IMG/VR virus record: IMGVR_UViG_3300029305_009146
Origin: an uncultured virus (IMG/VR IMGVR_UViG_3300029305_009146)
Lineage: Duplodnaviria; Heunggongvirae; Uroviricota; Caudoviricetes
Length of the DNA stretch: 30,507 nucleotides
Direction: 5' to 3' (one strand)
In this document: one piece after another, positions 444 to 30,507 of the stretch
How the letters are laid out: each line of letters opens with the position of its first letter
Position numbering within the stretch: the stretch's first letter is position 1
Notes under the pieces: generated by a model
Seen by the model: only the letters and a program-made list of their open reading frames with translations
Told to the model about the DNA's origin: nothing
Databases searched by the model: none
Program-made: the position numbers and the translations under genes

Positions 444-456
444 GTTAAGGGAAAAA
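444..456 (-). promoter_or_regulatory. Conserved upstream motif copy 1 (TTTTTCCCTTAAC)
   Basis: Plus strand gttaagggaaaaa, between a terminator and the next RBS. Confidence 0.75.
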
Positions 457-1687: not shown

Positions 1688-1700
1688 GTTAAGGGAAAAA
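1688..1700 (-). promoter_or_regulatory. Conserved upstream motif copy 2
   Basis: gttaagggaaaaa between the terminator (~1708-1735) and the RBS. Confidence 0.75.
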
Positions 1701-4218: not shown

Positions 4219-4231
4219 GTTAAGGGAAATT
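4219..4231 (-). promoter_or_regulatory. Conserved upstream motif copy 3
   Basis: gttaagggaaatt, about 16 nt from the SD of the GNAT gene. Confidence 0.75.
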
Positions 4232-11989: not shown

Positions 11990-12112
11990 GTTGTCTCTCC
12001 TTTGTTTTATAAGTCCACTAATCGTCCAGTTTCAAAACATCCATTGCATCATCAACGGAGATGCCAATGTCGTAACACCGATGAATTTTCTCGACAAATC
12101 GCCTCTATATCT

Positions 12113-12125
12113 GTTAAGGAAAAAA
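12113..12125 (-). promoter_or_regulatory. Conserved upstream motif copy 4 (heads the ~7.8 kb operon)
   Basis: gttaaggaaaaaa after the terminator at ~12146-12169. Confidence 0.72.
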
Positions 12126-12169
12126 ATCATAAACAGAAATAAAAAAAGAGGCGCTCGCCTCTCTTTTTT

Positions 12170-12670: not shown

Positions 12671-12714
12671 GCTTAATATCCCCCTTTGTTAAAGTTAATT
12701 ATGCTTCTATTACA

Positions 12715-12727
12715 GTTAAGGGAAATT
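12715..12727 (-). promoter_or_regulatory. Conserved upstream motif copy 5
   Basis: gttaagggaaatt. Confidence 0.75.
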
Positions 12728-12746
12728 TTGAGGTGTTTTTCATTTT

Positions 12747-13397: not shown

Positions 13398-13409
13398 GCA
13401 TCAACCCCT

Positions 13410-13523
13410 TTAGCGCTCGTATACAGGCTCCAACTCCCCTCGAATCATACACTCATTTACACTCATGACAAACTCATTGATGCGGTCATAATCCGGATTC
13501 TCCGGCAAATCCGTGTCTTCTTT
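13410..13523 (-). pseudogene. 3' remnant of a gene (KEDTDLPENPDYDRINEFVMSVNECMIRGELEPVYER*), resembling the C-terminus of Pol-beta-type nucleotidyltransferases
   Basis: Start-less frame of 37 codons. The TxLPxxPDYxxIxEFxxxVNE pattern is recalled from Clostridial nucleotidyltransferases. Confidence 0.45.
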
Positions 13524-13555
13524 TCATACATTATATCACAAAGTTTCCTGATATT

Positions 13556-13568
13556 GTTAAGGTAAAAA
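13556..13568 (-). promoter_or_regulatory. Conserved upstream motif copy 6 (variant TTTTACCTTAAC)
   Basis: gttaaggtaaaaa after the terminator at ~13580-13611. Confidence 0.65.
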
Positions 13569-13612
13569 TTGGTAATAAAAGAAAGAGGCCGCTATGCAGC
13601 CCCTTTCTTTTT

Positions 13613-16600: not shown

Positions 16601-16783
16601 TTTTTCTTCCAGAACCTTTTCAAGCTCAGCAGATACATTCGCAATTTTCTCTCCTTTTAACATACGAAGAGTTACTGCTTTTACCGCGCCGGATACCAGC
16701 GCATGATTGCTGGTGGTAGAGAGGTCAATATTTCTTCTTCTTAAACAAGATGACATTTTATTAAGTTCACTTGCTTTTCTCAT
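13613..16783 (-). CDS. UvrD/PcrA-family SF1 helicase with an N-terminal PD-(D/E)XK-like, Cys-cluster domain
   Basis: LSDAQEEAI, AGAGAGKT, LLTFT, VVDEFQDT, VGDDSQAIFSFR, LENHRS, TAHSSKGLEW and EERRRLLFVTLTRAR; N-terminal FDFY..VEVCKIKT, ELYAM and CxxxxCxxCxxxxxC. Confidence 0.9.
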   Translation of the reverse strand: MRKASELNKMSSCLRRRNIDLSTTSNHALVSGAVKAVTLRMLKGEKIANVSAELEKVLEEKGHNFENRTQKERVLESYDRYIRRYVASEGRVLQFPRGNEVVNLFGEDVIPNFDFYTVNGDNVEVCKIKTSSPGTQKSSNESLELYAMSLWAKKMFPNATKISSSYYHLKGPSDTGKGSIATMDYYDERATKKHHEQIYDAARDSFFEGEYKNLTAECSPDDCVSCPQNNICHYIGSKKPSEEPKSVKPVADIMLSDAQEEAIAHNEGVGRINAGAGAGKTLVVAMNIVNLLMNGAEPDDICLLTFTNSGALEMTERIQAYCAELGLDVDTSRITSATFNSFCQKILEERYMELGFLAPPDVIDDETKCGVIKEILDKYSPISEWDYLNFTMNMARAKGALWSAVETFAQIKKNGWTRLNHKIEHLSEPSITVLFQAYEDFCNLLKARNLVEYDDQLLMVFDLLKSDPTLFDKMGFRHIVVDEFQDTDLPQIKLLQEMINTPKFKSFLAVGDDSQAIFSFRNTSPEYLIDFFNYFGAGKDYYLLENHRSQAEIIKMANRINAMNVRRVEKDLVPTKAPGIIPIVQGFYSQDEEYEYIANEIEKKVKDGVRTSDICFIGYTKYELQKMADILAKKDIPVVLMNPEPYIENSKVKAVLSFGDSYHYGTTAGILELLNIYSGNTLLANYTDKELDKLITDFKIELEATPQTKQGFMDIVNQLDPDKEDEVFQSFLEKVERRNTIADLYRYLHDFEMYGQKSAFKKEAKYDGVVLTTAHSSKGLEWDHVYCSVTKFDGERYHVLRRDDEEVEERRRLLFVTLTRARKELYVTGDYTAYNNEKEGRVINQYLRNCYSAIGKDMDVDFNEYFIRQKKAQLAAKQNKAKASGVSLDSLVKRTARKDKLIKELEEQFAKAYPGKDFYIEQGFPNADFLEEKDIKAYIEMYAKKNVLSELNDLMARLYPGQTLESAFKLKKGDVDNATSEHLVGIVANIKYLEGKTPDEIKELREALNHCNSFLFPNKNTMNECIGASIKYRGMTFEDCIKQYHEDKEAELVEKE

Positions 16784-17319
16784 CGGTCAAAATCCTCCTT
16801 CTGATGCACAAGCGCATCTTTTTCTCTCAGTGTTTTGATAATCAGTTTTGCAATTTTTTCCGGGCTGTCGTTTTTGTCGATTCTAAGGCCGTTCCAGGTT
16901 CCCTTAGTCCCGTTAATTCCATTCATAAATTTGATTCCTGTTCCTCCGGCCGCTTCCCATTCGCGAAGGTTTGGGGTATAATCATCTATCAAAATATCAT
17001 TTGGTTTTATTCCGCCGGGTACATACTTTGTCTTATTTATTCCACACGATGAAAAAATTCGGTTATGGCGAGGAATTTCCGGAAGTTGCTCGTCAACCCA
17101 TGAGTTCTTTTCCTTTAACGCATATTTGCTGTCCTGCAAATAATGGGAATTAATAAAGCCTTCCACTCCTTCGGATGTAATAACAGCTCTAAAGGCAAGA
17201 ACAAGAGCATCGTGTGCTTTTAATGTACGAAAATAACCCTCTTCATATAAATCTTCAAAGGCAGTCACGGGCTTCCACTCTGCGAAAGACCCGTCCATAT
17301 CGCCAAAAAGTCGTCCCAT
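16780..17319 (-). CDS. HAD-superfamily 5'(3')-deoxyribonucleotidase (NT5C-like)
   Basis: FGDMDG (DxD) and ILIDDYTPNLREWEAAGGTGI; ATGA-coupled to the helicase. Confidence 0.85.
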   Translation of the reverse strand: MGRLFGDMDGSFAEWKPVTAFEDLYEEGYFRTLKAHDALVLAFRAVITSEGVEGFINSHYLQDSKYALKEKNSWVDEQLPEIPRHNRIFSSCGINKTKYVPGGIKPNDILIDDYTPNLREWEAAGGTGIKFMNGINGTKGTWNGLRIDKNDSPEKIAKLIIKTLREKDALVHQKEDFDR

Positions 17320-17348
17320 AAAAATTCTCCTTTCTTTTACATATTACT

Positions 17349-17361
17349 GTTAAGGGAAATT
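17349..17361 (-). promoter_or_regulatory. Conserved upstream motif copy 7
   Basis: gttaagggaaatt, about 15 nt from the SD; terminator at ~17381-17410. Confidence 0.75.
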
Positions 17362-17418
17362 TTCTTTATTGAAACAAAAAAAGAGCCGTGCAAAATGCAC
17401 GACTCCTTTTCTTTTTGG

Positions 17419-17997
17419 TTAGACAAGCTGCGAAAGAGCGAAGCCTCTATGAGTCTTCCAAGTCTGCTCCTTTCCGGCGTTTTCTCCGCGCTCCGGAGTA
17501 AAAGTGCTTTCGGAACTCTCAAAGTTTCCGTTTGTAACAAAGATGTAGCGAGCGTCTGCTTCATCAGCCTTGTTAAAAAAGAAAGAGTTGAGAATCACGG
17601 TCGCATTCTCACCGCTGGAGAACTTCACGGAGAAGTACTTCTTGTTGGTCTCCTTTGTGGTCTTTTCTTCTACGTTCTTGAAAGAACAGGAAGAATAAAT
17701 ACCAATCGGGTCAGCGAGGCCCTTGGTTACGTTAAAGCCCTTAATCGGACCAACTTCCGGAACCTCTACCATGCGCAGAACCTCGATTTCTCCGTCGGAA
17801 AGCATCTTCCCGACAACAAGAACCTCGTTCCGTTCCGTATCAATGACATTGCCGGATAACTTAATATCCCGGAGATGGATACCCTGTTCCTGAGACCAAT
17901 ACTCAATCTGAAGAGTATCCGACGCAGTTAAGGTTCCCAGTGCAACACAGGCATTGTCATTCTTTCTTACATAAAGCTTTCTTACAAAGTTACTCAT
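17419..17997 (-). CDS. Hypothetical beta-rich protein (possible OB-fold)
   Basis: SD AAAGGAG; monocistronic, with its own motif copy and terminator. Confidence 0.7.
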   Translation of the reverse strand: MSNFVRKLYVRKNDNACVALGTLTASDTLQIEYWSQEQGIHLRDIKLSGNVIDTERNEVLVVGKMLSDGEIEVLRMVEVPEVGPIKGFNVTKGLADPIGIYSSCSFKNVEEKTTKETNKKYFSVKFSSGENATVILNSFFFNKADEADARYIFVTNGNFESSESTFTPERGENAGKEQTWKTHRGFALSQLV

Positions 17998-18051
17998 AAT
18001 AATCTCTCCTTTTCGTGATTAAAAATTAGGCACTATTGCCTTTGTACTGTT

Positions 18052-18064
18052 GTTAAGGAAAAAA
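18052..18064 (-). promoter_or_regulatory. Conserved upstream motif copy 8
   Basis: gttaaggaaaaaa; terminator at ~18080-18104. Confidence 0.72.
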
Positions 18065-18111
18065 TTTTTTAAAAGAGAAAAAGAGCCGGATAAACGACTC
18101 TTTTAAAAAAA

Positions 18112-18909
18112 TCACATATATTCGGTAACTTCTTTTGTTCCTCTGTTATAAGTAATCATATTGCAATCATTCGGGTTTATAATGTAAAATTCTCCGTACC
18201 TTTCTTTTAAATACTGCTCGCACTTTGTATATGCCTCCTGTATGCATCGAGCACCTCCGGACTCCAATGCTTTTACAATCTGTGTCAAACATGTCCCAGA
18301 ACGGTATCTTGGGGCAATAAATGCTACTTCGTTCAAATCTACCCGGGATAAAAGCTCTTCGATGCGCTTTTTGCACCGCTCTCCTTCTTTTTTGTTTTTT
18401 GCGGACATTTTTGCATTTATCCAACACTCTCTTATATACCGAAAAAGTCGTTCGATGAGGATAATGCACGCGCTTATAACAAGCGGAGCAAGGAACAATA
18501 CCGCGATTGCTAATGACTGTGCTTTAAATTCATCCATTCCTGCGGCAATTTTTTGTTTCCGTACAATGTTTGAGAGCCACATACAAAAATGTCCATACCA
18601 TTTATAAAACGGTCCGGTAAAATAGCGTTCTGTCGATAAGCCCAGGTCGGCACCAAGAGCAAACAATATGTAATTAACCACTACAAAAATAAAAGCCAAA
18701 AACTTACTTGTTTTTATTGTGATTTCCAGTTTTCTTAAATTTTCCGCCTGACGAAGATTATATTTTCCGGTCCTGCCCAGTTCCACAACCTCCATAAGCG
18801 GGACAGACACTCTCTTTGTTTTATCGATAATTATCCGTTTTTGCTCTGGGCTTAGCATGGTAAAAGTGTTTATCTCAAACGGCAGTCCCGGTCCTACTTT
18901 GGTATCCAT
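18112..18909 (-). CDS. Hypothetical membrane protein with two TM helices
   Basis: Likely start MDTKVG with SD AAGGAG; hydrophobic FLAFIFVVVNYILFALG and LAIAVLFLAPLVISACIILI. Confidence 0.7.
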   Translation of the reverse strand: MDTKVGPGLPFEINTFTMLSPEQKRIIIDKTKRVSVPLMEVVELGRTGKYNLRQAENLRKLEITIKTSKFLAFIFVVVNYILFALGADLGLSTERYFTGPFYKWYGHFCMWLSNIVRKQKIAAGMDEFKAQSLAIAVLFLAPLVISACIILIERLFRYIRECWINAKMSAKNKKEGERCKKRIEELLSRVDLNEVAFIAPRYRSGTCLTQIVKALESGGARCIQEAYTKCEQYLKERYGEFYIINPNDCNMITYNRGTKEVTEYM

Positions 18910-18964
18910 ATGAACTTTCTCCTTAGCGTGATTATAAAAACAAGAATAGCATAAAAGGCAAAAA

Positions 18965-18992
18965 AATACAAGAGGACCATGCCTCTTGTATT
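18965..18992 (-). terminator. Intrinsic terminator
   Basis: aatacaagagg-accatg-cctcttgtatt hairpin. Confidence 0.75.
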
Positions 18993-19000
18993 TGTAGATT

Positions 19001-20266
19001 TTACTTTTCCCGTAAACGAATTGCATTGACCTTTTTTTGTTTGTCAAAAGCAAGATTCATTTGCAGAGAACCACTGTAATATTCATAAACATCTTCCGTT
19101 TCATAAGAAAGGGAGAAATGTGGTTCTCCATATAATTCAGATAATTCGTTGCCTGTCATATTAAGGCGCCCCCCTCCGGAGACAGACACGGGGCTCTTGG
19201 ATGGAGTTTTAGACTCTATTGTGATGTCAATAATCGCCCCGCCTGCTAACGACGTTGTATCTGCAGTCTTATTTTTTACAGTAACCTGCACTTCACAATC
19301 CGGATACTGTGTGTTTTCCAGACGTATCCCTTTTACCGTCTTTCCGGTATTTAGTACCGTTGTAAAATCATATTCCTTGTTTTTTATTTCCCATCCCAGA
19401 TTTAACATCTGTTCAAGTTTTTCTCCCAGCTTATGTACCGAACTACCAAAACAAAACTCCATGTCAGTCCAATCAGAAGAAACAGTCCCGCCCACGGGGA
19501 TGTATTCAATAACATCTCCCGGGAGTGAGGTTTTACCCTCGGTTTTAATTGTCTCATGGGAATCTTCATTGTCTGTCAAGTCTTTAGGAAGGTCCAAAAT
19601 TGTATCTTCGTTAAACTTGGCCGGGACAATTGCAAAACTGACCCCGCGTTCGGTACTTTCCATCAATAAAGATGTGAGCGTATAGGTGTTTTTGTTCAGA
19701 ACCATAGTATAAGAAACGGTATCCTGGTTTCCGAACACGCGACACAGGGAAGTATTAAACACTTGGTCTTTTGGTAAAGAAAAATATTCTTTCAAGTCCT
19801 GATAAAGTCCGGTTCCTTTTAATGTATAGTTAGACTCATCCTCTTCCATTGTTACGTTGGCAAAAACTTCATCAAAGCTTAATGCAGACACAGAAATAAA
19901 CCCGTTTTTTTCTTCACTTACTGTCTCCGTCCACTTGTTTGAAAGTGCGTCGTGAGTATAAACAAGCGTTTTTGTGTTGCTGACGTCTTCAAACCATTTT
20001 TTTAATGACGTTGTTTCATCACCGGAAACTGTGGTTCCGTAATAATAACGGGTCTGAGGGTCTGCCTGTACCCGGACTTGAAGTTCGCTTTCGGCGTCTT
20101 TAACGGTGATTGTTCCTTCCGAGTATCCGTTATATTCCTGTTCAAAAAAATACGAAAGAACATCCTGCGCGGTAAGAATCTCCGGGGCTTTATTCTTGTT
20201 CAAGTAAAAATATGCGCCGCCGCCAAGCAGGCAAAGCACTACAACAATGATTAAGAGTTTTTTCAT
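19001..20266 (-). CDS. Exported or membrane-anchored protein
   Basis: N-terminal MKKLLIIVVVLCLLGGGAYFYL signal/anchor; beta-rich acidic body. Confidence 0.75.
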   Translation of the reverse strand: MKKLLIIVVVLCLLGGGAYFYLNKNKAPEILTAQDVLSYFFEQEYNGYSEGTITVKDAESELQVRVQADPQTRYYYGTTVSGDETTSLKKWFEDVSNTKTLVYTHDALSNKWTETVSEEKNGFISVSALSFDEVFANVTMEEDESNYTLKGTGLYQDLKEYFSLPKDQVFNTSLCRVFGNQDTVSYTMVLNKNTYTLTSLLMESTERGVSFAIVPAKFNEDTILDLPKDLTDNEDSHETIKTEGKTSLPGDVIEYIPVGGTVSSDWTDMEFCFGSSVHKLGEKLEQMLNLGWEIKNKEYDFTTVLNTGKTVKGIRLENTQYPDCEVQVTVKNKTADTTSLAGGAIIDITIESKTPSKSPVSVSGGGRLNMTGNELSELYGEPHFSLSYETEDVYEYYSGSLQMNLAFDKQKKVNAIRLREK

Positions 20267-20368
20267 ATAAGCCTCCCTTTTAAAACAATGAATAATTAAG
20301 AACGAATAGTGGACAATGAGGTTATCCTAATTGTTTGTTTTCCCTTATTTATTCTTAATTGTTCTATT

Positions 20369-20381
20369 GTTAAGGAAAACA
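20369..20381 (-). promoter_or_regulatory. Conserved upstream motif copy 9
   Basis: gttaaggaaaaca; terminator caggagatgg/ccatctcctg at 20395-20421. Confidence 0.7.
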
Positions 20382-20484
20382 AAAATACAAAAAACAGGAG
20401 ATGGTGATTACCCATCTCCTGCTCTGTTTTCGCGCAATGGCTTTTCTGCTCATATTTTACTTCTCCGCAGCGGAGAATTTTTCC

Positions 20485-21246
20485 CTAGTTAAACGGGAGC
20501 TCCTCATCAATACCATCCGGGATGTTCATGAAACCATCACCGGAGGAGAGCTCTTCCTCTACTGCCGGAGCCGGCTTGGTGTTTTCCTTTACCTCAACGA
20601 AAAGTCTCTCAAGGTCCATCTTGTTGATGCCCATGTGGCTTACATTGCGGTAGGTTCTGCCGTTACGGGTAGAGGTATACTCATCGCCCGGTCTGGTAAG
20701 GATGGTTGCGTAAATCTTGGTCTCAACCTCCTTGCCGTCCTTGGTCTTGGTCTCATTAAGACCGGAAAGTCTCTTCTGAACCTTCTCAATGGCATCCGGC
20801 TGATTGTCGGAGTTGTAAACCTTGATTCTGTGGGAAACGTACTCATCACCCTGTTTAACAGAGATAGTGACGTCAAAGTGCGGCTTCTTTGGCTTGCCTT
20901 CCTTGTTGAGGCGCGGGGAGCCGTCCTCCTCCTTCTCCTCGTAAAGTCTTGCATCGCTGATAAAACCGGTTACGATTGCAGCACCCTCAAGCTCAAAGTA
21001 ATCGTTGCCGTTCATTACCTTATTTGCATTCACAGTGTTTGCGCCGCCTCTGAAGCCGACCGCAGTAATGTTGTAGCCAACCTTGATGCCTTCGGTTTCG
21101 GAAAAGTTGCTCTTAACATTAACGTCTTCTTTGTGTTCGCCGTCCTTGTCGAAGTAGGTAACCTCAACAACCAGCAATCCGTCCTTTACTTCCTTAACCT
21201 TACCGGAAATCACATTGAGTCCGGTGTTCTTGCTCTGATACTTCAT
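20485..21246 (-). CDS. Single-stranded DNA-binding-like protein with a canonical SSB acidic tail
   Basis: C-terminus GDGFMNIPDGIDEELPFN; beta-rich body; start MKYQSK after SD AAAGGAG. Confidence 0.7.
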   Translation of the reverse strand: MKYQSKNTGLNVISGKVKEVKDGLLVVEVTYFDKDGEHKEDVNVKSNFSETEGIKVGYNITAVGFRGGANTVNANKVMNGNDYFELEGAAIVTGFISDARLYEEKEEDGSPRLNKEGKPKKPHFDVTISVKQGDEYVSHRIKVYNSDNQPDAIEKVQKRLSGLNETKTKDGKEVETKIYATILTRPGDEYTSTRNGRTYRNVSHMGINKMDLERLFVEVKENTKPAPAVEEELSSGDGFMNIPDGIDEELPFN

Positions 21247-21305
21247 GATATCATTCTCCTTTTCATAAAAATTCACCCAAACAGGCGTATTATTGGTACG
21301 AAACA

Positions 21306-21318
21306 GTTAAGGGAAAAA
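21306..21318 (-). promoter_or_regulatory. Conserved upstream motif copy 10
   Basis: gttaagggaaaaa upstream of the SSB-like gene. Confidence 0.75.
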
Positions 21319-21363
21319 TTTTTAAAAAGAAACTTTTTGAAAGAAATTTTATTTTGCCTTTAA

Positions 21364-21376
21364 AATTTCCCTTAAC
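21364..21376 (+). promoter_or_regulatory. Conserved upstream motif copy 11, on the plus strand
   Basis: aatttcccttaac upstream of the only credible plus-strand gene. Confidence 0.78.
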
Positions 21377-21439
21377 GTAAACAGAAGCATATTTAACAGA
21401 GAAGAGCGGCTAAATATACCAACAAAGGAGCCGTTCAGT

Positions 21440-22141
21440 ATGATTAGTAATGAAATTCTGTTGCCATTTGAAGAACTCATTTTAAAGAAGCGAGGTGGTT
21501 CGAAAACCCTAAAGACGTTGGAAGAAAACAAAGAGATGGTCTTATATATCGCGAATGACATTTTGGGGCTATCTGAGGAGGAATTCCGGGCGTTGTATTC
21601 TACGGAATTTAATGCCAAGTACCACATAACAAAGTACGTTGCACAACTTTTAAAGCTGGCAGACGAAGAAGCGCTGGTGGGGTCGAAACGCTCCAAAGAC
21701 TATATTTTTGGAACTCTCTACACCGGTGGCGAAAAGACCGATATGCAAAAAGAGATTATTCGTCTTTTAAACAATGATGATGAATCAACAAAAAAACATT
21801 TGGAGCGTATCAAAGACATTAAAAAAAGAGACGGAATTATTTTTCGGTATTTGGAATGGTTGTTTGATGCGGTTATGGAAATGGATACGATTTCTAAAAG
21901 GATTCAATTTCTTAGCCGTGCAAAAGAGCTTAAATTTGCAGAACGCATTCCTTGCTTTGCGTTAATAAACACGCATTATTTCTGTCTGCTTGACTTTTAT
22001 TTTTACAATCTCCCCAGGGAGACTCAGTATGAATATTACGGAGAATATCTGTATGCGCGTAAAAATATCCCGGAGGGCTTTGAAGTGTTGTGCTTTGCGA
22101 TGGAAGATAATCCGCAAGCGATGAAAATTTTAAAAGGATAA
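21440..22141 (+). CDS. Hypothetical helical protein
   Basis: SD AAAGGAG; fills the gap between divergent and convergent genes; ends at a bidirectional terminator. Confidence 0.8.
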   Translation: MISNEILLPFEELILKKRGGSKTLKTLEENKEMVLYIANDILGLSEEEFRALYSTEFNAKYHITKYVAQLLKLADEEALVGSKRSKDYIFGTLYTGGEKTDMQKEIIRLLNNDDESTKKHLERIKDIKKRDGIIFRYLEWLFDAVMEMDTISKRIQFLSRAKELKFAERIPCFALINTHYFCLLDFYFYNLPRETQYEYYGEYLYARKNIPEGFEVLCFAMEDNPQAMKILKG

Positions 22142-22148
22142 AAGCAAA

Positions 22149-22179
22149 AAAAAGAGACGGTATTAAACCGCCTCTTTTT
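22149..22179. terminator. Bidirectional intrinsic terminator
   Basis: aaaaagagacgg-tattaaa-ccgcctcttttt between convergent genes. Confidence 0.75.
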
Positions 22180-22184
22180 CGTTG

Positions 22185-22826
22185 TTATGATACCTTGTGG
22201 AATGGAGACCCATAACTTGCCAAACGGCTTCCTGCATATAACAGGGCCGCCTTCTGTTTATCCATGCCGCTATACTTGCTGGTGAAGGCGTTAAACTTTG
22301 CCAGCTCCTCGGTAGCGAGCTTGTCAAAATATGCAGCCTCCGCAGAACGAGAGCTCATATGCGTCATCATTCCGGTCGGACATTCCATCTCTCCCTCATA
22401 GGAGTTGTGCTGCGGTTTACCGTTCTTCTTTTCGTAATACTTCGGAACGGAACCGTTTCCAAAGCCGTCACCGCCACGGATAAAATCCGAGTAGACTTCC
22501 TTCAACCAATATGTAAGAAAAGTACTGCCGAGGCAGGTCTTCTGTTCACCGGTTGCTTCATCAAGCGTGTACGGCGAGTATGCCGGCAAACGCATGATGA
22601 CTACAGTCTTGAGGGACTGTTCCAAGTCCTCGATATCCTGGAGACGATAGTTGGAAACCTTTAACAGTTTTGCGTCGGTGCAATATTTGGTAATGATTTT
22701 TGCCATTGCTTCCAGCGCAAGTTCGACTGCGGCACTGGTCTGTCCGCTGTGATACAGTTCGTAAATGCGAAGCCATTTTTCCATGGTTTCTTCCTGATTA
22801 ATTGTGTCGTTTGTCCTATACTTCAT
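22185..22826 (-). CDS. Divergent sigma-70-family-like protein (region 2 recognisable, region 4 HTH apparently missing)
   Basis: LYHSGQTSAAVEL..., DIEDLEQ...YSP, STFLTYWLKEVYSDFIR and SVPKYY parallel sigma regions 1.2-2.4 (EDLxQ..FDP..FSTYAxWWIR..I..VP); start MKYRTN after SD AAAGGAG. Confidence 0.6.
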   Translation of the reverse strand: MKYRTNDTINQEETMEKWLRIYELYHSGQTSAAVELALEAMAKIITKYCTDAKLLKVSNYRLQDIEDLEQSLKTVVIMRLPAYSPYTLDEATGEQKTCLGSTFLTYWLKEVYSDFIRGGDGFGNGSVPKYYEKKNGKPQHNSYEGEMECPTGMMTHMSSRSAEAAYFDKLATEELAKFNAFTSKYSGMDKQKAALLYAGSRLASYGSPFHKVS

Positions 22827-22880
22827 AAGACCTGCTCCTTTCGTGATTAAAATTGGATATAAAAATCCCATACATATATA

Positions 22881-22893
22881 GTAAAGGGAAAAA
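22881..22893 (-). promoter_or_regulatory. Conserved upstream motif copy 12 (variant TTTTTCCCTTTAC) ahead of the sigma-like gene
   Basis: gtaaagggaaaaa; hairpin gaaaagtatc/gatacttttc at ~22937-22966. Confidence 0.65.
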
Positions 22894-22977
22894 TTTTTTA
22901 ATAAATATATTTTATGCATGGTAAATTTTTCCTATAGAAAAGTATCCCATTTCTGAGATACTTTTCCATAAGACTTT

Positions 22978-25900
22978 TTAGTTGTTTGGCCAAGGGAATT
23001 TTTCTTTTTCTTTGTCGGTAATCCATGTACCTTCATCGATTTCGCTGGCGGTAATCGCTTTTGTGAATCTGGTATCCAACTCATCAATTCCGATGGTGTA
23101 AATACTACAGTCCGGATTGTTTGGATTGCTGTCGATGATAAGACATTCGTTTTCGTCCACCATGCCAAGATATATTCCGAGCTTTTCGCGCTCCGGATTA
23201 ATAAGGATTGCACCCGGTCTCATATGGTCATATTGGTTTGCAACTCCGGCGACTTCCTGCCACATAAGGAACTTTAAGTCTTTCACTGTTTTCTTTGCTT
23301 TCTTTTCGTAAAAATCAAAGTCCGGATATGCACCTCCGTTCACACCTATCAGAAGTGTGTTGACAAACCGCAACGAGTTTTGAGAAGTTGTCCGGTCGTC
23401 GTTATAAGTTATAACTCCGGCATTATTAATTACAGCGTTAAGTATCTTAATCGAACGCTTAGATGTGTCGTTCAGATTGATGCCATACTTTGCCGTAAGA
23501 TTGTTTTTAAACTCTTCTTTTTCCGCTTTATTCAGTGTTCCCATTGTGTCTTCGTTGAAGAATACATCGAACTCTTCCCAGTTCTCAACACCTTCAAGGT
23601 ATCCGTCTGCTTCTGAGCCAATCATGCTCTTAATATCTTCGAGGTCAGAGGCACTCAGTACATTGTAGGAGTTCGGGAATTTTTCCAAAACATAATGCTC
23701 ATCAAAACCTCTTGCGTAATCCGCGCTCGTAAACTTATCAATTCCTTCGATTGTAAGTTCGCCAGAGGAGCTACCGGCGTTCATTTCTCCGAATACGTCT
23801 GCCCAATATTCCTTCCAGCCATCCGTTTCGGTTATATTGTTCTTTTCGTAACGTTTTGTTGCGTCCTTGTTATCCGGATATGCACTAAATTCATCTTTTT
23901 CGATTCGATGGCTTGGATGGAAAGAAGAATAATTTCCACCAAGAGAGCGGTCAATATCAAGCGCTGCAAGACCTTCTACACTGTCTGTGTAATAAAGGTC
24001 AACCACCGGATAAATAACTCCCGGACAGTGTCCCTGACAGGTGTAAGTATAATTGGTATTGTAACAACCTGGTTCCTCTTCACTCTTCCATTCCTCGTGT
24101 GTATGGGAACAGTTATATGTCACATTGTAAGACCACGGGCAACTGGAGGTGTGCTCATGGTTCTGACCACAATGGTAGGTTATTTTTTTGTCATAACCGC
24201 CGCACCCATAGTAATTATGGATGTGTCGTTTCCCATCCGGCATAATTTCCCCTTGACTATAACCGCAGTTCCATTCGTACTCATAGCTATAGCAATACGT
24301 ACAGTCATGCTGACAATTGAGGTCACCTTTGGAAGGAGTTGTAATGAAATAATTGCACTCACCAAACTCGTCCTTAGGATAATTTCCATATCCCGTAGTT
24401 TCAGCATGTGTATATATGTTTTTGCACTCACTTAAATTGGTGTGAGGCTTTATTGTATAGCTGTACGAATTTGGTGTCTGGATTGTGTGCGCTTTAATCC
24501 AGAGGTTGAACATCTGCGCTTTTGCAAGACCATACAAATCACCGTCAATTTCGTCAGCCATGTACCGATGACGCATAATTCCGAAGTACGGCACCATAGA
24601 GCCGAGCATATTGTCGGTTTTCTTGTAATTGCCATATCCGGTATAGGATACATAGTAATTACCGATTTGTGCCGAATCTGCAATTTCCGAAATTACCAGA
24701 GTTCCATCGCCGTATTCTTGGGAATAAATCACACGGCTTTGCGCATAAGAACTGTTTGCGTTATCGATTGCGTCCTTGTAATAAGAGACACCGTCTTTTT
24801 TTGCCATATCCATAAAACTCTCTTTGATTTCTTTCATATCGGCAACAAGGAGCTGGCCGTAATTGGTGTCATCGGCAAACGCAAAGGTGAAAAAGGATGC
24901 AATCGCTCCTACCACAATCATAACAAGACACAAAACAACGTATACAACCAAAAATCCCAGTCCTGCCATACCCAGGTATTTAATCAACACCTTCTTTATG
25001 TTGGCAAAAATATCAAAAATCTTGTTGTAGAGTGCGAACGGTGCCTTTGCAATCTTCCCTGCCACTCCGCCGACCGCTCCGGTGAACTTTTTAAAACCGT
25101 TACCGAAGCGCGCCATCATTACGCCAAGTGCGGAAGAAGACACCTGCTCCCACTTACGTCCAAGATAGCTGTCTCTTCTTCTTTGGTGGCGGACATCTCT
25201 TTTTTGTTTACGGTTGTTAAGTTTTTTTTCTTTTTTATCCAGACGTGCCTGCAGTCGGTCGTCTTTCCGCTTAGTACGGGCCGCGTTGCGCTCGTTTCGG
25301 GCGTCTCTTTTCTGAGAACGAAGACTCGCCTGCCCATCATGTTTTTGGCGATATCTTGCTTCCTTGCGGTCAAAGATGTCGTCTTTACGCTTGGTCTTTA
25401 GAGCATCACGTTTTCCTCTTGCCTCTTCCAGAGATGCCTTATTGCCGCTCCGTTTTGCGTTGCGGACATTTTTATCTTCTTTAAAGATTTCTTTTCTGGT
25501 CTTTTTATCCCCTTTGGCAATGGTTTTAGAGTCTTTAATTGCGCTTTTTGCGTTTTTAAGAGAACTTTTGGCGTCAGAAACTTTCTGCGCATCAATCATA
25601 CCAATAGCTCCTGCCGCAGAAACTGCGCCGGATGCTACCGTTACGCCTGCATTTGCAACAGCATGCGCTGCGATTTTAATATTATCAATACCGGTAAGTG
25701 TCGCGCGGTATGCAGTAGCTGCGGTTTTTGCGGTTACTTTTACTGTGTTCTTTGAAAAGGCCAGACCGGTTTTAGCATCGTCATTAAGAACGGCAGTCCC
25801 AACCCGGTTCATTTGCCCTTTTCTTATTTGCTCCGAGCGCTGATGTGCTGTCGTCTCGCCAACCACACCAATTTTTTCACAGATTTCATTGTATTTTTCT

Positions 25901-26970
25901 TCGTCCACTTCAATAGCGTGGCCTTTTTTGTCTGTAAATCTGCGGACGTCCTTCATTTTTTTGGTTTTGCCATCGGCTTCATACACGATATCCCCGTGAG
26001 TATCCCTTACCGGGACCTTATGAAGCTTTTTTAGTTCTTTCATTTGGGATTTGCTACCGGTAAAATCTTCAATACCGATACTTCGAACCGTCTTTAAGCG
26101 TATAAACTCCATATCGTCGGCTTTTACTTTTTTCTTTCCGCCACTCATGATGGAATCGAACAGCTCTTTTTCTCTCACAGCGCTTTTTGCCGCCTCCATC
26201 TCGGAAGACCCGAGCTTGACCTTTTCACTATAAGTACCAGAGAGTAACCCGGAACTTGTAATATCCCGAGAAAGTGTCATTACATCAAGAGTGTTGTCGC
26301 TTTTACAGGTGACCCCCTTTTGTCCAAACAGCATAAGTACTGCTTTTTTATCTTCGGTCGACTGCGTATTTAAAAACTGATTTAAAACTCCGCATTCTTT
26401 TTCATCAAAATGAATCGGGGTGGTCTCATAAAAACCAAAGTTTGCAACAGACTTTATCTGTGCCTCATTCAATCCTTGAATTTTTGTAGCCTGCTCAAAA
26501 GACCCAACAACATCCCGATTGAGGATGTTATTGGACACAAGAAATTCTGCGCCTCCGTTTTCTACGAACTTATCATAAGCTGCGGCATTCTGGGAACGTA
26601 CATAATTGCCGCTGGCAAGCGTTAAAAGGGCGGCCGTCTTCTCCATTTTTAAAATACCGTCATGAACATCGTTTTGCTGGCGATAAGTTCCCTCCGCAAC
26701 AAATTGTCCGGCAGCTTCTTTTAATCCTCCGTCTACTCTTTGACCTCCAGGGAGTTCAAAGCGGCCGTCAGAGAAATCTGCCGCTGTGTTTAATGCCTTA
26801 GCAGAGGTCATTGCCATCTGCTGTGAAACAGGAACATCACTCTGCTGTTGTTGAGAAGCAGACTGGTTTTTATTAAGGTCTCTTTCGTCAATCTGCATGC
26901 CATCGGCAAAGACGTTCCCTTTAAGAGAACCCATGCCACCCTGTCCGTTGTAGTTTATGTTGTCCGCCAA
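22978..26970 (-). CDS. Large conjugation-associated membrane protein with a basic region, TM helix, Cys/His-rich segment and degenerate C-terminal NlpC/P60-like domain
   Basis: Position downstream of VirB4; TM GLGFLVVYVVLCLVMIVVGAIASFF; C-terminal MRPGAILI...KLGIYLG...LIIDSN. Confidence 0.65.
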   Translation of the reverse strand: MADNINYNGQGGMGSLKGNVFADGMQIDERDLNKNQSASQQQQSDVPVSQQMAMTSAKALNTAADFSDGRFELPGGQRVDGGLKEAAGQFVAEGTYRQQNDVHDGILKMEKTAALLTLASGNYVRSQNAAAYDKFVENGGAEFLVSNNILNRDVVGSFEQATKIQGLNEAQIKSVANFGFYETTPIHFDEKECGVLNQFLNTQSTEDKKAVLMLFGQKGVTCKSDNTLDVMTLSRDITSSGLLSGTYSEKVKLGSSEMEAAKSAVREKELFDSIMSGGKKKVKADDMEFIRLKTVRSIGIEDFTGSKSQMKELKKLHKVPVRDTHGDIVYEADGKTKKMKDVRRFTDKKGHAIEVDEEKYNEICEKIGVVGETTAHQRSEQIRKGQMNRVGTAVLNDDAKTGLAFSKNTVKVTAKTAATAYRATLTGIDNIKIAAHAVANAGVTVASGAVSAAGAIGMIDAQKVSDAKSSLKNAKSAIKDSKTIAKGDKKTRKEIFKEDKNVRNAKRSGNKASLEEARGKRDALKTKRKDDIFDRKEARYRQKHDGQASLRSQKRDARNERNAARTKRKDDRLQARLDKKEKKLNNRKQKRDVRHQRRRDSYLGRKWEQVSSSALGVMMARFGNGFKKFTGAVGGVAGKIAKAPFALYNKIFDIFANIKKVLIKYLGMAGLGFLVVYVVLCLVMIVVGAIASFFTFAFADDTNYGQLLVADMKEIKESFMDMAKKDGVSYYKDAIDNANSSYAQSRVIYSQEYGDGTLVISEIADSAQIGNYYVSYTGYGNYKKTDNMLGSMVPYFGIMRHRYMADEIDGDLYGLAKAQMFNLWIKAHTIQTPNSYSYTIKPHTNLSECKNIYTHAETTGYGNYPKDEFGECNYFITTPSKGDLNCQHDCTYCYSYEYEWNCGYSQGEIMPDGKRHIHNYYGCGGYDKKITYHCGQNHEHTSSCPWSYNVTYNCSHTHEEWKSEEEPGCYNTNYTYTCQGHCPGVIYPVVDLYYTDSVEGLAALDIDRSLGGNYSSFHPSHRIEKDEFSAYPDNKDATKRYEKNNITETDGWKEYWADVFGEMNAGSSSGELTIEGIDKFTSADYARGFDEHYVLEKFPNSYNVLSASDLEDIKSMIGSEADGYLEGVENWEEFDVFFNEDTMGTLNKAEKEEFKNNLTAKYGINLNDTSKRSIKILNAVINNAGVITYNDDRTTSQNSLRFVNTLLIGVNGGAYPDFDFYEKKAKKTVKDLKFLMWQEVAGVANQYDHMRPGAILINPEREKLGIYLGMVDENECLIIDSNPNNPDCSIYTIGIDELDTRFTKAITASEIDEGTWITDKEKEKFPWPNN

Positions 26971-26988
26971 TGGTTACACCTCCTTTTA

Positions 26989-27567
26989 TTAAAAAGCTCC
27001 ATCAAGCACAGAAGTATCGGTCTGTTCGTTCAGATACCGCTCTTCTTCCATCTGGCGCATCATGTTGCCGATTTCCTCAGAGAGGTATTCGTTTCTTGCC
27101 TCTGTTACCTGCAATGAATCTGCGTGCACCAGCATCCGAATGATGTTTAACCCGTCTGCATTCGGCACATCTGCTGTAAGATAAAACAGGAATGGGTTTA
27201 TCAGGTTGACAGCAAGAAGCCGGTCATTTTCAACGCTTTCGTTTTCTAAAATATTCAGGTAGAATATGCTATCTTTGTCCGGATACTTGTTTTGGTTTTC
27301 CCTGAAAAATTGCAGATATCCCCAAAAGAGCTTAAGCTCCGGTTCGTGATAGGAACGGAACATGACGTCAACCACATACCAGTCCGGGTTCTTCGGGTCC
27401 AGCGATAATTTTAATGCCGGTTTTTCAGTGGTGTGAACCGGTTCTTTGTCTGGGTCATGATTCTCATCTGCTACATAACATTGATATGACATCGTGACCT
27501 TGGTCGGGCCATCCTCTTTATATCCATTCATTCTCTTGCATACTTCACAAAGTTCTTCTCTGGTCAT
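26989..27567 (-). CDS. Hypothetical protein
   Basis: SD GGAGG; operon with the 1330-aa gene. Confidence 0.75.
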   Translation of the reverse strand: MTREELCEVCKRMNGYKEDGPTKVTMSYQCYVADENHDPDKEPVHTTEKPALKLSLDPKNPDWYVVDVMFRSYHEPELKLFWGYLQFFRENQNKYPDKDSIFYLNILENESVENDRLLAVNLINPFLFYLTADVPNADGLNIIRMLVHADSLQVTEARNEYLSEEIGNMMRQMEEERYLNEQTDTSVLDGAF

Positions 27568-27628
27568 GTAAATTCCTCCGTGTTTTTAATATAGAATTAA
27601 GACTGAATGCCTTAATTATCCTTATAGG

Positions 27629-27641
27629 GTTAAGGGAAAAT
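27629..27641 (-). promoter_or_regulatory. Conserved upstream motif copy 13
   Basis: gttaagggaaaat; terminator aaaagggctg/cagccctttt at ~27654-27680. Confidence 0.75.
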
Positions 27642-27691
27642 TTTTTCAAAAGAAAAAGGGCTGCATGATACAGCCCTTTTGTTTTTGTAAA

Positions 27692-30115
27692 TTACGCAAC
27701 TTCTCCTGCCTTGGTAGACATAATCTTATACAGCCTTGTGTTCTCCGGGAATACATCCTTAAACGGAATGGTTTGTTTACCGGTGTACAGAAGTCCGCAT
27801 CCGGCGTCCACGTTTGTAATGTGCTCCAAATCGCCATCGCTCAGATTCAGCAATTCTGCAAGGTTTGCTCGGTCGATTGCTGACTGGTTTAACATCATAA
27901 CGAAACTTGTCGTATTGATGATTGCACGTGCCGCCGGTGAAAGAAGTAAATCTTCCACGTTCTGGGTGATACCAGTCGGAACGCCCCAGAACTTACGAGC
28001 TCGCTTCCAAATGCTCTTTAAGAACTCTGCGGAAGACGGGCTGGAAAGCAACAAGTGGAACTCGTCCACATATGCCCAAGTCCAAAGGCCCTTGGTACGG
28101 TTAGCAACCATTCGTGTCCAGATATCGTTCAAACAAATCTTAAGTGCCAGGTCACGTAAGTTGGTTCCGATATCCTTAATGTCATACACGATAAAGCGTG
28201 CATTTACATCAACATTAGTGTGATGTGCAAAGGTATCGAAGGAACCGGTAGTATAACGCTCCATGACAATCGCAAGGTTATGTGCTTCCGGCTGAGACTG
28301 CTCTAACAGCATATTGAAGAGGTTCTGCAACGTCGGACAAATGCTTCGGTCAATAGTCTTCTTCTTTCCGTCCGGTCCCGGAGGAAGCGCGTCAAGCGCC
28401 TGCAGATAATCCGCATAAATCTGAATAATGCAACGGTCTACAATGGACTTTTGTACCGGAGTAAGCTGCGCATTGTGACCAAGCATGGTCTCAAGTAAAC
28501 CGCCGATGAAGTCGGACTTCAAGGAAATCGGATTTCCATCGGAGTCGAACGTGGTGTCAATATCAAGGTCCATGGGATTAAGATAAACACCATTGCCGGG
28601 AGCAATCTTTATTACGGAACCTCCGAACTCCCGAGCAAGTTCCGTATACTCTCCGTCCGGGTCCACGACATATACCTGCGCGTTGGTATTAAGAACTGTA
28701 TTTACAATTTCTCTCTTTGCCGAGAAAGATTTACCGGAACCCGGAGCACCAAGGATAAGTCCATTGTAGTTTTGCTTATCGGGCCCGATACGGTTGTATG
28801 CAATAATGGTTTTATTTACTGCGTTTACGCCGTAGTAGTAACCACCTTTGTCAAACCTGGAAATTTCGTTAAACGGCATAAAGATTCCAAGGCTTTCCGT
28901 CGTGAGCGGGCGCTTGGTAAACGTCTTGTTGGTACCAAACGGCAGGGAACCGAAGAATCCGCGTTCCTGTTGCATGGACAGCACTTTAAATCCGCATAAA
29001 TACTTGGATGCAATATTACGGATAACTTCCTTCTGCTCTTTTAAAGTTTCCGGGTCGTCTGCAAAATGAGACATTGTTAAGCTAAAGAAAAACAGTTTTT
29101 GGTCACGGTTAGACATATCTTCCTGTAACTCATCAATCTGCGCCTTTGCGTTCTTTAAATCGATGGAAATAAAGCTTGGGTCGTATCCGTTCTTGAGTGC
29201 GCGTTTCTGTGCCTCGATAACATCGGAAGTGATTGCGATTCCCTGGTTACGGATAAGCTTAATCGCATCTTCCTGCGGAATCGGGATAATCTGGACCTTA
29301 ATGCAGCTCTCAAAAGAGAGTTCTGTAAGCTCCGCAAGGAAATTGGTATTGAGCCAGTTTGCAATATTATCGAGATACAACGCCTGCCCATAACGGTCAC
29401 CAATCATAAAATTGGTAGCGTTGAACTTCATCGGAGCAGCAATCAAATCCTTTGTAGTTAAGCCCTGTTTTCTTACTGCCTTCCAGTTGATGGAAGTCTT
29501 ACCGTTTTCATCATGCTCAAACAAATAGTTGGTTGCGGTTCCGTTCATAATATTGTGGAACAGTTCCAATCTGGAATCCAGTGTGAGAGCTGAAACCCCT
29601 TCTTTGGACATGCGTTTGAAGTTACGCAACAACTCTTCGTCAATATCAATGAAACGCTTCATAGCCTCATCTACACCTTTAGCAGTGAGTGCGTATGTAA
29701 AATATTTTTCCGAAGTAATGGAATTTTTGGAATTCCGAACCTTGTCTCCTAAAATCTCGGTAAGTTCGGTTCTGAACGTATCCAGTTCATCGCCCTTTTG
29801 TTCCGGCGCAATCTTTTTTAACTTTGCAACCGGGTCCTCCGGGGTATTAATAAAATTGAACGAAAGAACATCATTTGATGCAAGCGCGTTCAAAAAAGCC
29901 TGATATGCTTCATAAATGGTTTCTTGTCCATCCTGAGACAGTGTTTTGAAGGTTGTATCATTAAAATGATACGTTTTGGAAAAGAGACCATCGTACTCCT
30001 GAAATACGCCGTTTTCATAGCACTCCTTATATGGGAGGCTGCTCTGTGCATTCTTAGGAATCGGCATCGGGTCTTTTTTTGTTTTCTTTTTATCGTTTCG
30101 ATTTTTGACCATCAC
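27692..30115 (-). CDS. virB4: VirB4-like conjugal transfer ATPase (TraE/PrgJ type)
   Basis: AQSSLPY, YYGVNAV, NGLILGAPGSGKSFSAKRE, VDPDGEY, YVDEFH and WKRARKFWGVPTGITQNV. Confidence 0.93.
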   Translation of the reverse strand: MMVKNRNDKKKTKKDPMPIPKNAQSSLPYKECYENGVFQEYDGLFSKTYHFNDTTFKTLSQDGQETIYEAYQAFLNALASNDVLSFNFINTPEDPVAKLKKIAPEQKGDELDTFRTELTEILGDKVRNSKNSITSEKYFTYALTAKGVDEAMKRFIDIDEELLRNFKRMSKEGVSALTLDSRLELFHNIMNGTATNYLFEHDENGKTSINWKAVRKQGLTTKDLIAAPMKFNATNFMIGDRYGQALYLDNIANWLNTNFLAELTELSFESCIKVQIIPIPQEDAIKLIRNQGIAITSDVIEAQKRALKNGYDPSFISIDLKNAKAQIDELQEDMSNRDQKLFFFSLTMSHFADDPETLKEQKEVIRNIASKYLCGFKVLSMQQERGFFGSLPFGTNKTFTKRPLTTESLGIFMPFNEISRFDKGGYYYGVNAVNKTIIAYNRIGPDKQNYNGLILGAPGSGKSFSAKREIVNTVLNTNAQVYVVDPDGEYTELAREFGGSVIKIAPGNGVYLNPMDLDIDTTFDSDGNPISLKSDFIGGLLETMLGHNAQLTPVQKSIVDRCIIQIYADYLQALDALPPGPDGKKKTIDRSICPTLQNLFNMLLEQSQPEAHNLAIVMERYTTGSFDTFAHHTNVDVNARFIVYDIKDIGTNLRDLALKICLNDIWTRMVANRTKGLWTWAYVDEFHLLLSSPSSAEFLKSIWKRARKFWGVPTGITQNVEDLLLSPAARAIINTTSFVMMLNQSAIDRANLAELLNLSDGDLEHITNVDAGCGLLYTGKQTIPFKDVFPENTRLYKIMSTKAGEVA

Positions 30116-30483
30116 TTAACTCCTTTATATTTTCTGCTTGGCTTTATTTCTGCCTTTTTGTTCTTTGTCAGGGCTTTGTCGGCCGCAAACTTTGTCTCAT
30201 AGTTGCGGACCGGCGGACTTAGAAAGTTGTCCTTTATGATGATGTACGCCATTTTTTCAAACGGTTCGTCATAAATTTTCATAAAGCCGACAAGAAAGAA
30301 CGGCAGAATGACAAGAAAGGATAAACCCATGCGAAGTGCATCAGAAGCGCCGGACAAAGCAAAATATACGCCAACACCAAGTGCCACACCGGGAGCGGCA
30401 CATCCGATTTCTCTTGCACTGAACGGGCCGATAAACTTTGATTTGTGCTTCAGTATGTTTTTAGGCATTTCAGATTCAATCAT
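30112..30483 (-). CDS. prgI: PrgI family protein (VirB3-like)
   Basis: MPKNILKHKSKFIGPFSARE plus two TM helices and PFEK; overlaps the virB4 start. Confidence 0.85.
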   Translation of the reverse strand: MIESEMPKNILKHKSKFIGPFSAREIGCAAPGVALGVGVYFALSGASDALRMGLSFLVILPFFLVGFMKIYDEPFEKMAYIIIKDNFLSPPVRNYETKFAADKALTKNKKAEIKPSRKYKGVK

Positions 30484-30507
30484 GTAGGCGTCCTCCTTTC
30501 TTATGCA

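Follow-up and report, generated by a model that had tools for sequence, protein, structure and literature searches.

Does the element in this stretch of DNA carry its own promoter-specificity subunit for the host RNA polymerase, and which promoters would such a subunit read? The question arises from 30,507 nucleotides (nt) of the IMG/VR record IMGVR_UViG_3300029305_009146, a whole stretch that we refer to as the window, in which the gene for a 213-amino-acid protein, here called P0001, lies among units headed by 13 copies of an oriented motif. An initial annotation, made from the letters of the DNA, had described P0001 as a sigma-like protein lacking region 4 and had proposed that it reads the motif as a -10-only promoter, the pair forming a self-reinforcing private transcription system on a conjugative element. 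The conjugative setting is borne out by a PrgI-family protein (E 1.2e-16) and a VirB4-like ATPase (TraG P-loop, E 1.4e-21), and the window is part of a Gram-positive-type conjugative element from an uncultured host. Its 30.5 kb make up no more than a fifth of the longest contig encoding P0001, whose length is up to 154.5 kb. We find that the N-terminal part of P0001 is very probably a sigma domain 2, a well-supported assignment. Our best explanation of the locus, on which we are evenly balanced, is that P0001 is an element-encoded promoter-specificity subunit of the host multisubunit RNA polymerase, in which sigma domain 2 is joined to a C-terminal hairpin without a domain 4, and that it reads the motif. 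The features of the locus and the parts of the protein are as follows.

22185..22826, minus strand: gene for the 213-amino-acid sigma-domain-2-like protein P0001 (open reading frame, ribosome-binding site, translation)
22881..22891, minus strand: motif variant TTTCCCTTTAC, candidate promoter of P0001's own gene, 54 nt upstream of the start (weight matrix 24.7 bits)
22148..22180, minus strand: terminator-like hairpin of 14 pairs with a T-run, directly after the P0001 stop and before the convergent plus-strand gene
P0001 residues ~8-127: sigma2-like domain (this and the next two from the family alignment and model)
P0001 residues 117-161: conserved glycine-rich linker (RGGDGFGNG..KY)
P0001 residues 162-206: two-helix hairpin

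The longest open reading frame (ORF) at the locus spans 22185..22919 on the minus strand; as the start we chose the ATG at 22826, which has the ribosome-binding site (RBS) GAAAGGAG 8 nt before it and gives a product of 213 amino acids. The strings by which the protein was first recognized (EDLEQ, YSP, STFLTYWLKEVYSDFIR, SVPKYY and SAEAAY) are each present in this translation, and the C-terminus is reached 48 residues past SAEAAY, where about 50 had been given. The original extent of 22185..22893 holds in part: the gene is real at 22185..22826, and the end at 22893 takes in the promoter region and not coding sequence. In that region we located the motif variant previously reported upstream of the gene, CCCTTTAC at 22881-22888 on the minus strand, 54 nt before the ATG.

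An AlphaFold model of P0001, built on the family alignment A1, reaches a mean predicted local distance difference test score (pLDDT) of 69.9, with values of 79-90 over most of residues 11-50 and 71-110. Compared with 48,161 PDB representatives, it is matched best by SigB (8x6g_H; Z 9.9, root-mean-square deviation (rmsd) 2.4, 90 aligned residues), and further matches include sigma32 (Z 9.8), an RpoS region 1.2-2 fragment (Z 9.6, with 96 of 96 residues aligned), sigmaS (Z 9.2), pro-sigmaK (Z 8.8), M. tuberculosis SigA domain 2 (Z 8.8) and SigW (Z 8.0), below which rank extracytoplasmic function (ECF) sigmas and the phage AR9 holoenzyme (Z 6.6). Chain 7d7d_F of the T4 gp45-dependent activation complex also matches (Z 8.3, rmsd 2.7, 94 aligned); it is unnamed in the result table and fits gp55 by its 137 residues. 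Apart from one engineered scaffold, the top structural rows (26 of 27) are sigma or sigma-containing, and all of them lie over model residues ~8-127. A Foldseek search of the model returned nothing at E <= 0.001, and all 50 matches listed were sigma entries at E values of only 0.12-1.0.

At the level of sequence, one of the seven family members, the most distant protein P0008, reaches the Pfam family Sigma70_r2 (E 2.6e-5, 24.4 bits against a cut-off of 24) and aligns with FliA across regions 2.2-2.4. When the family was compared with five E. coli sigmas by hhalign, P0001 residues 63-114 aligned with RpoS 114-156, corresponding to region 2.2-2.4, at a pairwise E of 0.0023 (RpoS DLIEEGNLGLIRAVEKFDP..FSTYATWWIRQ against P0001 EDLEQSLKTVVIMRLPAYSP..GSTFLTYWLKE). 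At the position aligned with the tyrosine of RpoS FSTYATWW, an aromatic residue is kept in all seven members. NCBIfam gives a sole match for P0001, the RsoA model NF041489 (E 0.1, residues 40-76, 12.7 bits against a cut-off of 100), and PHROGs gave nothing below E 0.17. The nearest language-model clusters of the whole protein are unnamed viral proteins of 182-205 amino acids (0.96), followed by a Sigma70_r2 cluster (0.94). The proposed sigma region 2 identity is thus upheld by the fold match (Z 9.9-8.0 for nine sigma or sigma-complex chains, over residues 8-127) and by the alignment of regions 2.2-2.4 with E. coli sigmas and FliA; a structural match to sigma domain 2, the absence of which the initial annotation would have counted against itself, was found in the searches with the AlphaFold model.

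The initial annotation had also suggested co-folding with the beta-prime clamp helices. With P0001 1-130 and B. subtilis beta-prime 200-340 as a stand-in for the host subunit, three runs scored 0.76, 0.77 and 0.77 (median 0.77) against 0.00 in all three controls, shared at least 85% of their contacts and gave a partner pLDDT of at least 78. Beta-prime residues 256-287 are predicted to contact P0001 residues 31-38, 61-78 and 119-125, which places the region-2.2-like helix EDLEQSLKTVVIMRL (P0001 ~61-78) on the clamp helices at 256-287. The pass mark used here is attained by 116 of 157 solved complexes and by 2 of 215 mismatched pairs; because sigma/beta-prime complexes have been solved many times over, passing it denotes likeness rather than binding, and the result is one of predicted docking.

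The C-terminal part of P0001 departs from this pattern of sigma matches. Residues 120-160, a conserved glycine-rich stretch, are modelled at low confidence, and two long helices follow (162-182 and 188-206) that match only generic helical hairpins at Z 5-6. Pfam finds no region 4 or helix-turn-helix (HTH) match in any of the seven family members, and hhalign of the family against full-length E. coli sigmas aligned region 2 only and no region 4. Among the language-model neighbours of residues 117-213 are Sigma70_r3/r4 clusters at 0.81-0.84, values too low for the tool to count them as meaningful. That P0001 has no recognizable HTH or region 4 therefore agrees with Pfam, with the profile comparison against five E. 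coli sigmas and with the model, in which residues 162-206 form a hairpin.

Is the missing domain a truncation peculiar to P0001? A full HMMER pass over 1.84 billion representatives at E <= 0.001 found seven proteins, six of which are true homologues (P0003-P0008; E 1e-98 to 4e-5; 195-216 amino acids), all from metagenome assemblies and none named. The seventh, of 2452 amino acids, was rejected as a homologue in that only a 25-residue stretch matches. A search with the family alignment added no members. The family amounts to seven clusters, P0001's own included, among about 15 billion proteins, and each is of metagenomic origin. The concern that homologues normally carry region 4 was answered in the negative by the length of all six true homologues, and this equal length indicates that the whole family is without domain 4, rather than P0001 alone being truncated. 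Alignment A1 of the seven members conserves W18, the EDLxQSL helix, YxPY, GSTF and SAExxYF, and a strongly conserved loop reads RGGDGFGxG..KY. Among the more distant members, three or four have ELDI, ELDIVL or ELQL as their C-terminal ending, loosely recalling the SLDFLY tail of gp55; P0001, which ends ...SYGSPFHKVS, and its closest relative are without such an ending.

What would such a protein read? The motif has the consensus AAwwTTTyCCTTAAC in gene orientation, often followed by a.TA..A. Its 11-mer core TTTYCCTTAAC occurs exactly 11 times in the window against 0.05 expected, a count reached in 0 of 100 shuffles; with one mismatch and W allowed at one position there are 22 matches against 4.7 expected (standard deviation (sd) 2.2), again reached in 0 of 100 shuffles. 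A weight matrix built from the 13 sites (24 columns, ~28 bits) scores these at 22.4-29.2 bits, with 15.3 as the highest score elsewhere in the window, so that the 13-copy motif is real and cleanly split from the background. In addition to the copy before P0001's own gene, the sites are these.

27629..27639, minus strand: motif copy 61 nt before the 192-amino-acid gene heading the 192-/1330-amino-acid transfer operon; terminator-like hairpin upstream at 27680-27654
21366..21376, plus strand: sole plus-strand motif copy, 63 nt before the block's only plus-strand gene (21440-22141)
21306..21316, minus strand: motif copy before the gene for a 263-amino-acid protein resembling single-strand-binding proteins, back to back with the plus-strand copy
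20369..20379, minus strand: motif copy 102 nt before a 421-amino-acid gene; terminator-like hairpin upstream at 20425-20391
18052..18062, minus strand: motif copy 54 nt before a 192-amino-acid gene (17419-17997); terminator-like hairpin upstream at 18104-18079
17349..17359, minus strand: motif copy 29 nt before the operon of an NT5C-like gene and a UvrD-like helicase
13556..13566, minus strand: motif copy differing at one position (TTTACCTTAAC), ~158 nt before a gene whose start is uncertain
12715..12725, minus strand: motif copy 44 nt before a 166-amino-acid membrane-protein gene
12113..12123, minus strand: motif copy 123 nt before a GmrSD_N/ParB-like gene; terminator-like hairpin upstream at 12168-12141
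4219..4229, minus strand: motif copy 32 nt before a GNAT gene; terminator-like hairpin upstream at 4272-4249
1688..1698, minus strand: motif copy 35 nt before a 133-amino-acid gene; terminator-like hairpin upstream at 1736-1707
444..454, minus strand: motif copy 37 nt before a gene running off the low end of the window; terminator-like hairpin upstream at 499-472

Every copy (13 of 13) points at the next ORF, 12 of them on the minus strand like nearly all genes and one on the plus strand. The distance to the start codon is 29, 32, 35, 37, 44, 54, 54, 59, 61 or 63 nt in ten units, whose start codons all have an RBS, and 102, 123 and ~158 nt in the other three. Upstream, terminator-like hairpins directly precede 7 of the 13 copies and are enriched (in 11000-30507, 43 against 19.6 expected, sd 4.6; in 1-11000, 12 against 8.4, sd 2.7). 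At the -35 distance there is no conserved block, only T-runs that are part of the upstream terminators, and matches to sigma-70-type promoters occur at chance (38 against 35.3 and 25 against 24.1 expected). Seven nt past the core, at column +13, 10 of the 13 sites have an A. Several units leave only 29-37 nt, a strong RBS included, between motif and start codon, which puts the motif at or next to the -10 position and rules it out as a -35 element. As a palindromic operator it is likewise ruled out, since it has no dyad symmetry and is strictly oriented. Orientation, placement and the missing -35 block thus sustain the earlier view of the motif as a promoter-like element without a -35.

Two of the terminator-motif-RBS modules, at 399-499 and 1645-1735, are near-identical (87% over 38 nt and 93% over 29 nt), which suggests that the promoter cassettes spread by duplication. 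On the 3' side of the copy at 13556-13566, the minus strand at 13494-13545 holds an extended -10-like TGTGATATAAT and then a hairpin (CGGATTTGCCGGAGAATCCG) before the uncertain gene start; the segment may represent a leader element or else a second promoter of host type. No copy lies in ~4230-12112, which holds TnpB and a run of small genes. Outside the window, the 15-mer of the motif occurs in 113 viral stretches with one match each, roughly the chance rate, none with a cluster of strong sites, and tblastn found no member of the P0001 family at these 113 loci (best E 0.28). Our literature search found no description of the motif or of the P0001 family, and matches listed for the motif string TTCCCTTAAC were unrelated by their titles and abstracts.

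How might protein and motif work together? The only sigma-like protein in the window lacks a -35 reader, and the motif promoters lack a -35. According to our best explanation, the region-2.2-like helix of P0001 would dock, as the co-fold predicts, on the beta-prime clamp helices, taking the place of the host sigma. The region-2.3/2.4-like segment GSTFLTYWLKEVYSDF, with F103, Y106 and W107, would then recognize and open CCTTAAC as a -10-type element, the TTTy and AA positions just upstream possibly acting as an extended -10. The start of transcription would fall on the A that 10 of 13 sites have ~7 nt downstream, and the 13 terminator-bounded units, P0001's own gene among them, would constitute one private regulon, with P0001 putatively autoregulated via the variant before its gene. 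Either mode of action, by P0001 alone or with a separate flap-binding or DNA-binding partner, is compatible with this proposal. The anatomy of the element, in which each unit consists of terminator, motif, RBS and gene or genes, fits a private transcription system; of the one originally put forward, the sigma-domain-2 protein without region 4 and the promoter-like motif without a -35 have both stood up, whereas the reading of the one by the other, and with it the self-reinforcing loop, is putative.

A number of observations weigh against this explanation. P0001 itself falls below every Pfam sigma model, a Pfam scan assigning it to no family; by sequence it has no match in the PDB, where the family profile finds no sigma either and its best match is a cyclophilin (E 0.27). 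The hhalign probability for the RpoS alignment is only 12.6%, and Z scores of 8-10 for helical domains can, by the tool's own note, be due to chance, though here all belong to one family. The co-fold, made with a B. subtilis stand-in, may have passed because the predictor had learned solved sigma/beta-prime complexes. Of the aromatic positions expected to read the -10 element, three in number, two (Y106 and W107) are not conserved across the family. The ~28 bits of the motif over 24 positions lie far above the expected reading capacity of one sigma2 domain; this excess suggests an additional DNA-binding component, a contribution of the glycine-rich loop or hairpin, or young copies of recent common descent. 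Finally, the link between P0001 and the motif is drawn only from their co-location, the variant before P0001's own gene and analogy with T4 gp55, and another sigma or a partner may lie outside the 30.5-kb window.

As an alternative, P0001 may supply only region 2 of a sigma divided between two subunits, like Tn916 Sig7-8 and B. subtilis SigO-RsoA, and read a -10-type core together with a required region-4 or flap-binding subunit that is outside the window or too diverged to be recognized. We consider this arrangement unlikely. In its favour, the sole NCBIfam match of P0001 is the RsoA model, though at 12.7 bits against a cut-off of 100, and the high information content of the motif would suit a second reader; against it, no conserved block is present at the -35 distance. 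P0008 weakly matches PF12645 HTH_16 (E 0.021), yet neither a Sigma70_r4 match nor any other sigma-like one was found among 52 ORF translations from the window at E values up to 0.01-1, and the sole HTH there belongs to a Cro/C1-type regulator 19 kb from P0001. Precedent exists on an element and on a phage: a recent preprint documents a split sigma on the conjugative element Tn916 (preprint 10.64898/2026.10.01.756105), and T4 gp55 requires gp33 on the beta flap for activated transcription (PMC7892883). The split-sigma genes are, however, adjacent in Tn916 and B. subtilis, whereas the neighbours of P0001 are the 1330-amino-acid transfer protein and the convergent 233-amino-acid gene. Considering our best explanation and the split sigma jointly, P0001 rather probably reads the motif, whether singly or as a subunit; reading by P0001 with no sigma-4-like partner at all is doubtful.

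The reader of the motif might also be a different protein. Another sigma or polymerase from a part of the element outside the window, or an alternative sigma of the host, could recognize it while P0001 serves different promoters, a reading that we judge improbable. Bacillota conjugative elements often carry ordinary sigma-70-family genes, and such genes are reportedly listed for C. difficile elements as well; P0001 and the motif are linked by co-location only, and two thirds or more of the contig lies beyond the window. The 30.5 kb examined nevertheless hold no other sigma-like gene, the missing -35 matches a factor without domain 4, and P0001's own gene carries the motif. Very improbable, to our mind, is a role of P0001 as a sigma mimic, sitting on the beta-prime clamp helices and damping host transcription as a decoy or growth-arrest factor, the motif being the operator of an unrelated regulator. 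The co-fold supports binding to the clamp helices only, and family members share the -10-reading residues only in part, but all seven retain the aromatic at the position of the RpoS tyrosine. Cells are reported to die when the element sigma Sig7-8 is overproduced (preprint 10.64898/2026.10.01.756105), which would be in keeping with such a mimic; the motif, however, is asymmetric, strictly oriented, placed between terminators and RBSs and without dyad symmetry, and so behaves as a promoter and not as an operator.

The preferred explanation, that P0001 reads the motif as a domain-4-less subunit of the host polymerase, has its closest functional counterpart in T4 gp55 with gp33, its closest counterpart by setting in Tn916 Sig7-8, and its closest relatives by ancestry in the sigma-70 family; by sequence, P0001 falls outside the gp55 family and outside the RsoA equivalog. 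In T4 late transcription, as presented in PMC7892883, the sigmaR2 homology domain of gp55 sits on the clamp helices and reads a -10-like element only, its helix-loop-helix is essential for function, and gp33 on the beta flap together with the gp45 sliding clamp gives activation. Both proteins are small (gp55 185 amino acids, P0001 213), P0001 as modelled would share with gp55 a region-2-like domain followed by a helical hairpin without domain 4, and both would serve a promoter class with a -10-type element only, for P0001 by the putative motif link. By contrast, the hairpin of gp55 is described there as running directly from helix 4, whereas P0001 has the conserved ~45-residue glycine-rich linker, low in confidence in the model. 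There is no detectable sequence relation between the two (the P0001 family aligned with gp55 by hhalign at E 0.53, over 16 columns), and gp55 itself meets Pfam Sigma70_r2 only at E 0.087. P0001 lies on a conjugative element and gp55 on a phage, the motif is longer than the T4 late -10-like element and unrelated to it, and P0001 is without the C-terminal SLDFLY-type clamp-binding tail, with no gp33 or gp45 counterpart identified.

Tn916 offers the parallel in setting. There, Orf7 and Orf8 are reported to make up the split sigma Sig7-8; binding to RNA polymerase is described for each of them, as is a positive loop in which they drive the element's main promoter, and the region-2-type subunit Sig8 is said to resemble RsoA (preprint 10.64898/2026.10.01.756105). 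Shared with P0001 are an element-encoded sigma activity in Bacillota that drives the element's own promoter, in the case of P0001 putatively, and RsoA as the very weak sole NCBIfam match of P0001. Unlike the two adjacent small genes of Tn916, one of which encodes a clear region-4 protein, and its one main promoter as described there, P0001 is one 213-amino-acid protein whose domain 2 is complete; the window shows no region-4 gene, and its promoter copies are dispersed and number 13. In B. subtilis SigO-RsoA, too, the sigma2 and sigma4 functions reside on separate polypeptides (PMC7826278). P0001 differs in being ~2.7 times the length of the 77-position RsoA model, in failing the RsoA cut-off and in having no SigO-like neighbour. 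With the sigma-70 groups 3 and 4 (SigB, FliA, ECF) it has in common the domain-2 fold, the alignment over region 2.2-2.4 and the predicted docking on the clamp helices, and it differs from them in having no domain 4. That domain is retained even by minimal group 4 sigmas.

Around P0001 lie the convergent plus-strand gene for a 233-amino-acid protein (21440-22141) and, upstream across a gap of 151 nt, the end of the 1330-amino-acid gene. The convergent neighbour has no family match and only two homologues, and its AlphaFold model is unusable (pLDDT 48.9). The 1330-amino-acid transfer-region protein (22978-26970, minus strand) has a central membrane segment and a Cys/His-rich block and matches no Pfam family at E 0.01; related plasmids have a lytic transglycosylase at the equivalent position. 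Also encoded in the window are a UvrD-type helicase, a ParB/GmrSD_N-like protein and TnpB. The TnpB/IS605-type gene (8949-10139, minus strand; OrfB_IS605, Cas12f1-like TNB, RuvC-like) lies inside the motif-free stretch ~4230-12112, which may be a later insertion. The gene at 20485-21276 (minus strand) encodes the 263-amino-acid protein, with a likely start at ATG 21246; it ends ...DGIDEELPFN, an acidic tail that we take to be of the kind carried by single-strand-binding proteins, and its last 32 residues match phrog_18107 (E 1.3e-8). Behind one motif-driven unit, a Peptidase_M15 gene of the D-Ala-D-Ala dipeptidase type (518-1237, minus strand; E 8.7e-22) is carried as cargo. At 3070-3098 on the minus strand, before the gene for the Cro/C1-type (XRE) HTH regulator (2479-3048, minus strand), stands a perfect sigma-70 promoter, TTGACA-17-TATAAT (12 of 12), the window's only canonical promoter of that quality; the regulator is a candidate host-read master regulator of the element. 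The element thus carries a canonical promoter as well, and the motif represents a distinct promoter class.

The nearest plasmid relatives of the VirB4-like ATPase are 36-40% identical, annotated 'CD1110 family' and found in Clostridium, Paenibacillus, Brevibacillus, Monoglobus, Oscillibacter and Ruminococcus. In the related plasmid pSXP-169_2 (VirB4 40% identical), the corresponding block holds no sigma-like gene. Searches for DNA carrying homologues gave no match by tblastn of P0001 against plasmids or against 50,697 phage records, nothing in genome contigs with P0001 or the VirB4-like protein, and nothing in viral contigs with P0001, P0008 or P0004. In metagenome contigs a single locus (L001) came up and was rejected as a spurious peptide match inside a SNF2-type helicase.

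To our knowledge, the sigma factors known to lack a domain for reading the -35 come essentially from phages, T4 gp55 being the model case. Work on the sigmas that conjugative elements themselves encode has only just begun, as Tn916 Sig7-8 illustrates (preprint 10.64898/2026.10.01.756105). In its most specific and most tentative form, which we hold to be less probable than its contrary, the proposal is that a gp55-style domain-4-less sigma was adopted by a conjugative element and, alone or with a non-sigma coactivator, reprograms the host RNA polymerase to an extended -10-type promoter, the 15-nt AAwwTTTyCCTTAAC before every unit, creating from the whole element a single insulated regulon that activates itself. 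If gp55-style reading is true, this would be the first such system outside phages. The family is invisible to Pfam and therefore goes unannotated wherever it is present. Should the proposal hold, sigmas that read a -10 only and have no domain 4 would also be a means by which conjugative elements shield their genes from the host's control. The joint switching-on of an element made of a dozen terminator-bounded single units would have an explanation, and the system would provide a compact natural orthogonal pair of factor and promoter that needs no -35.

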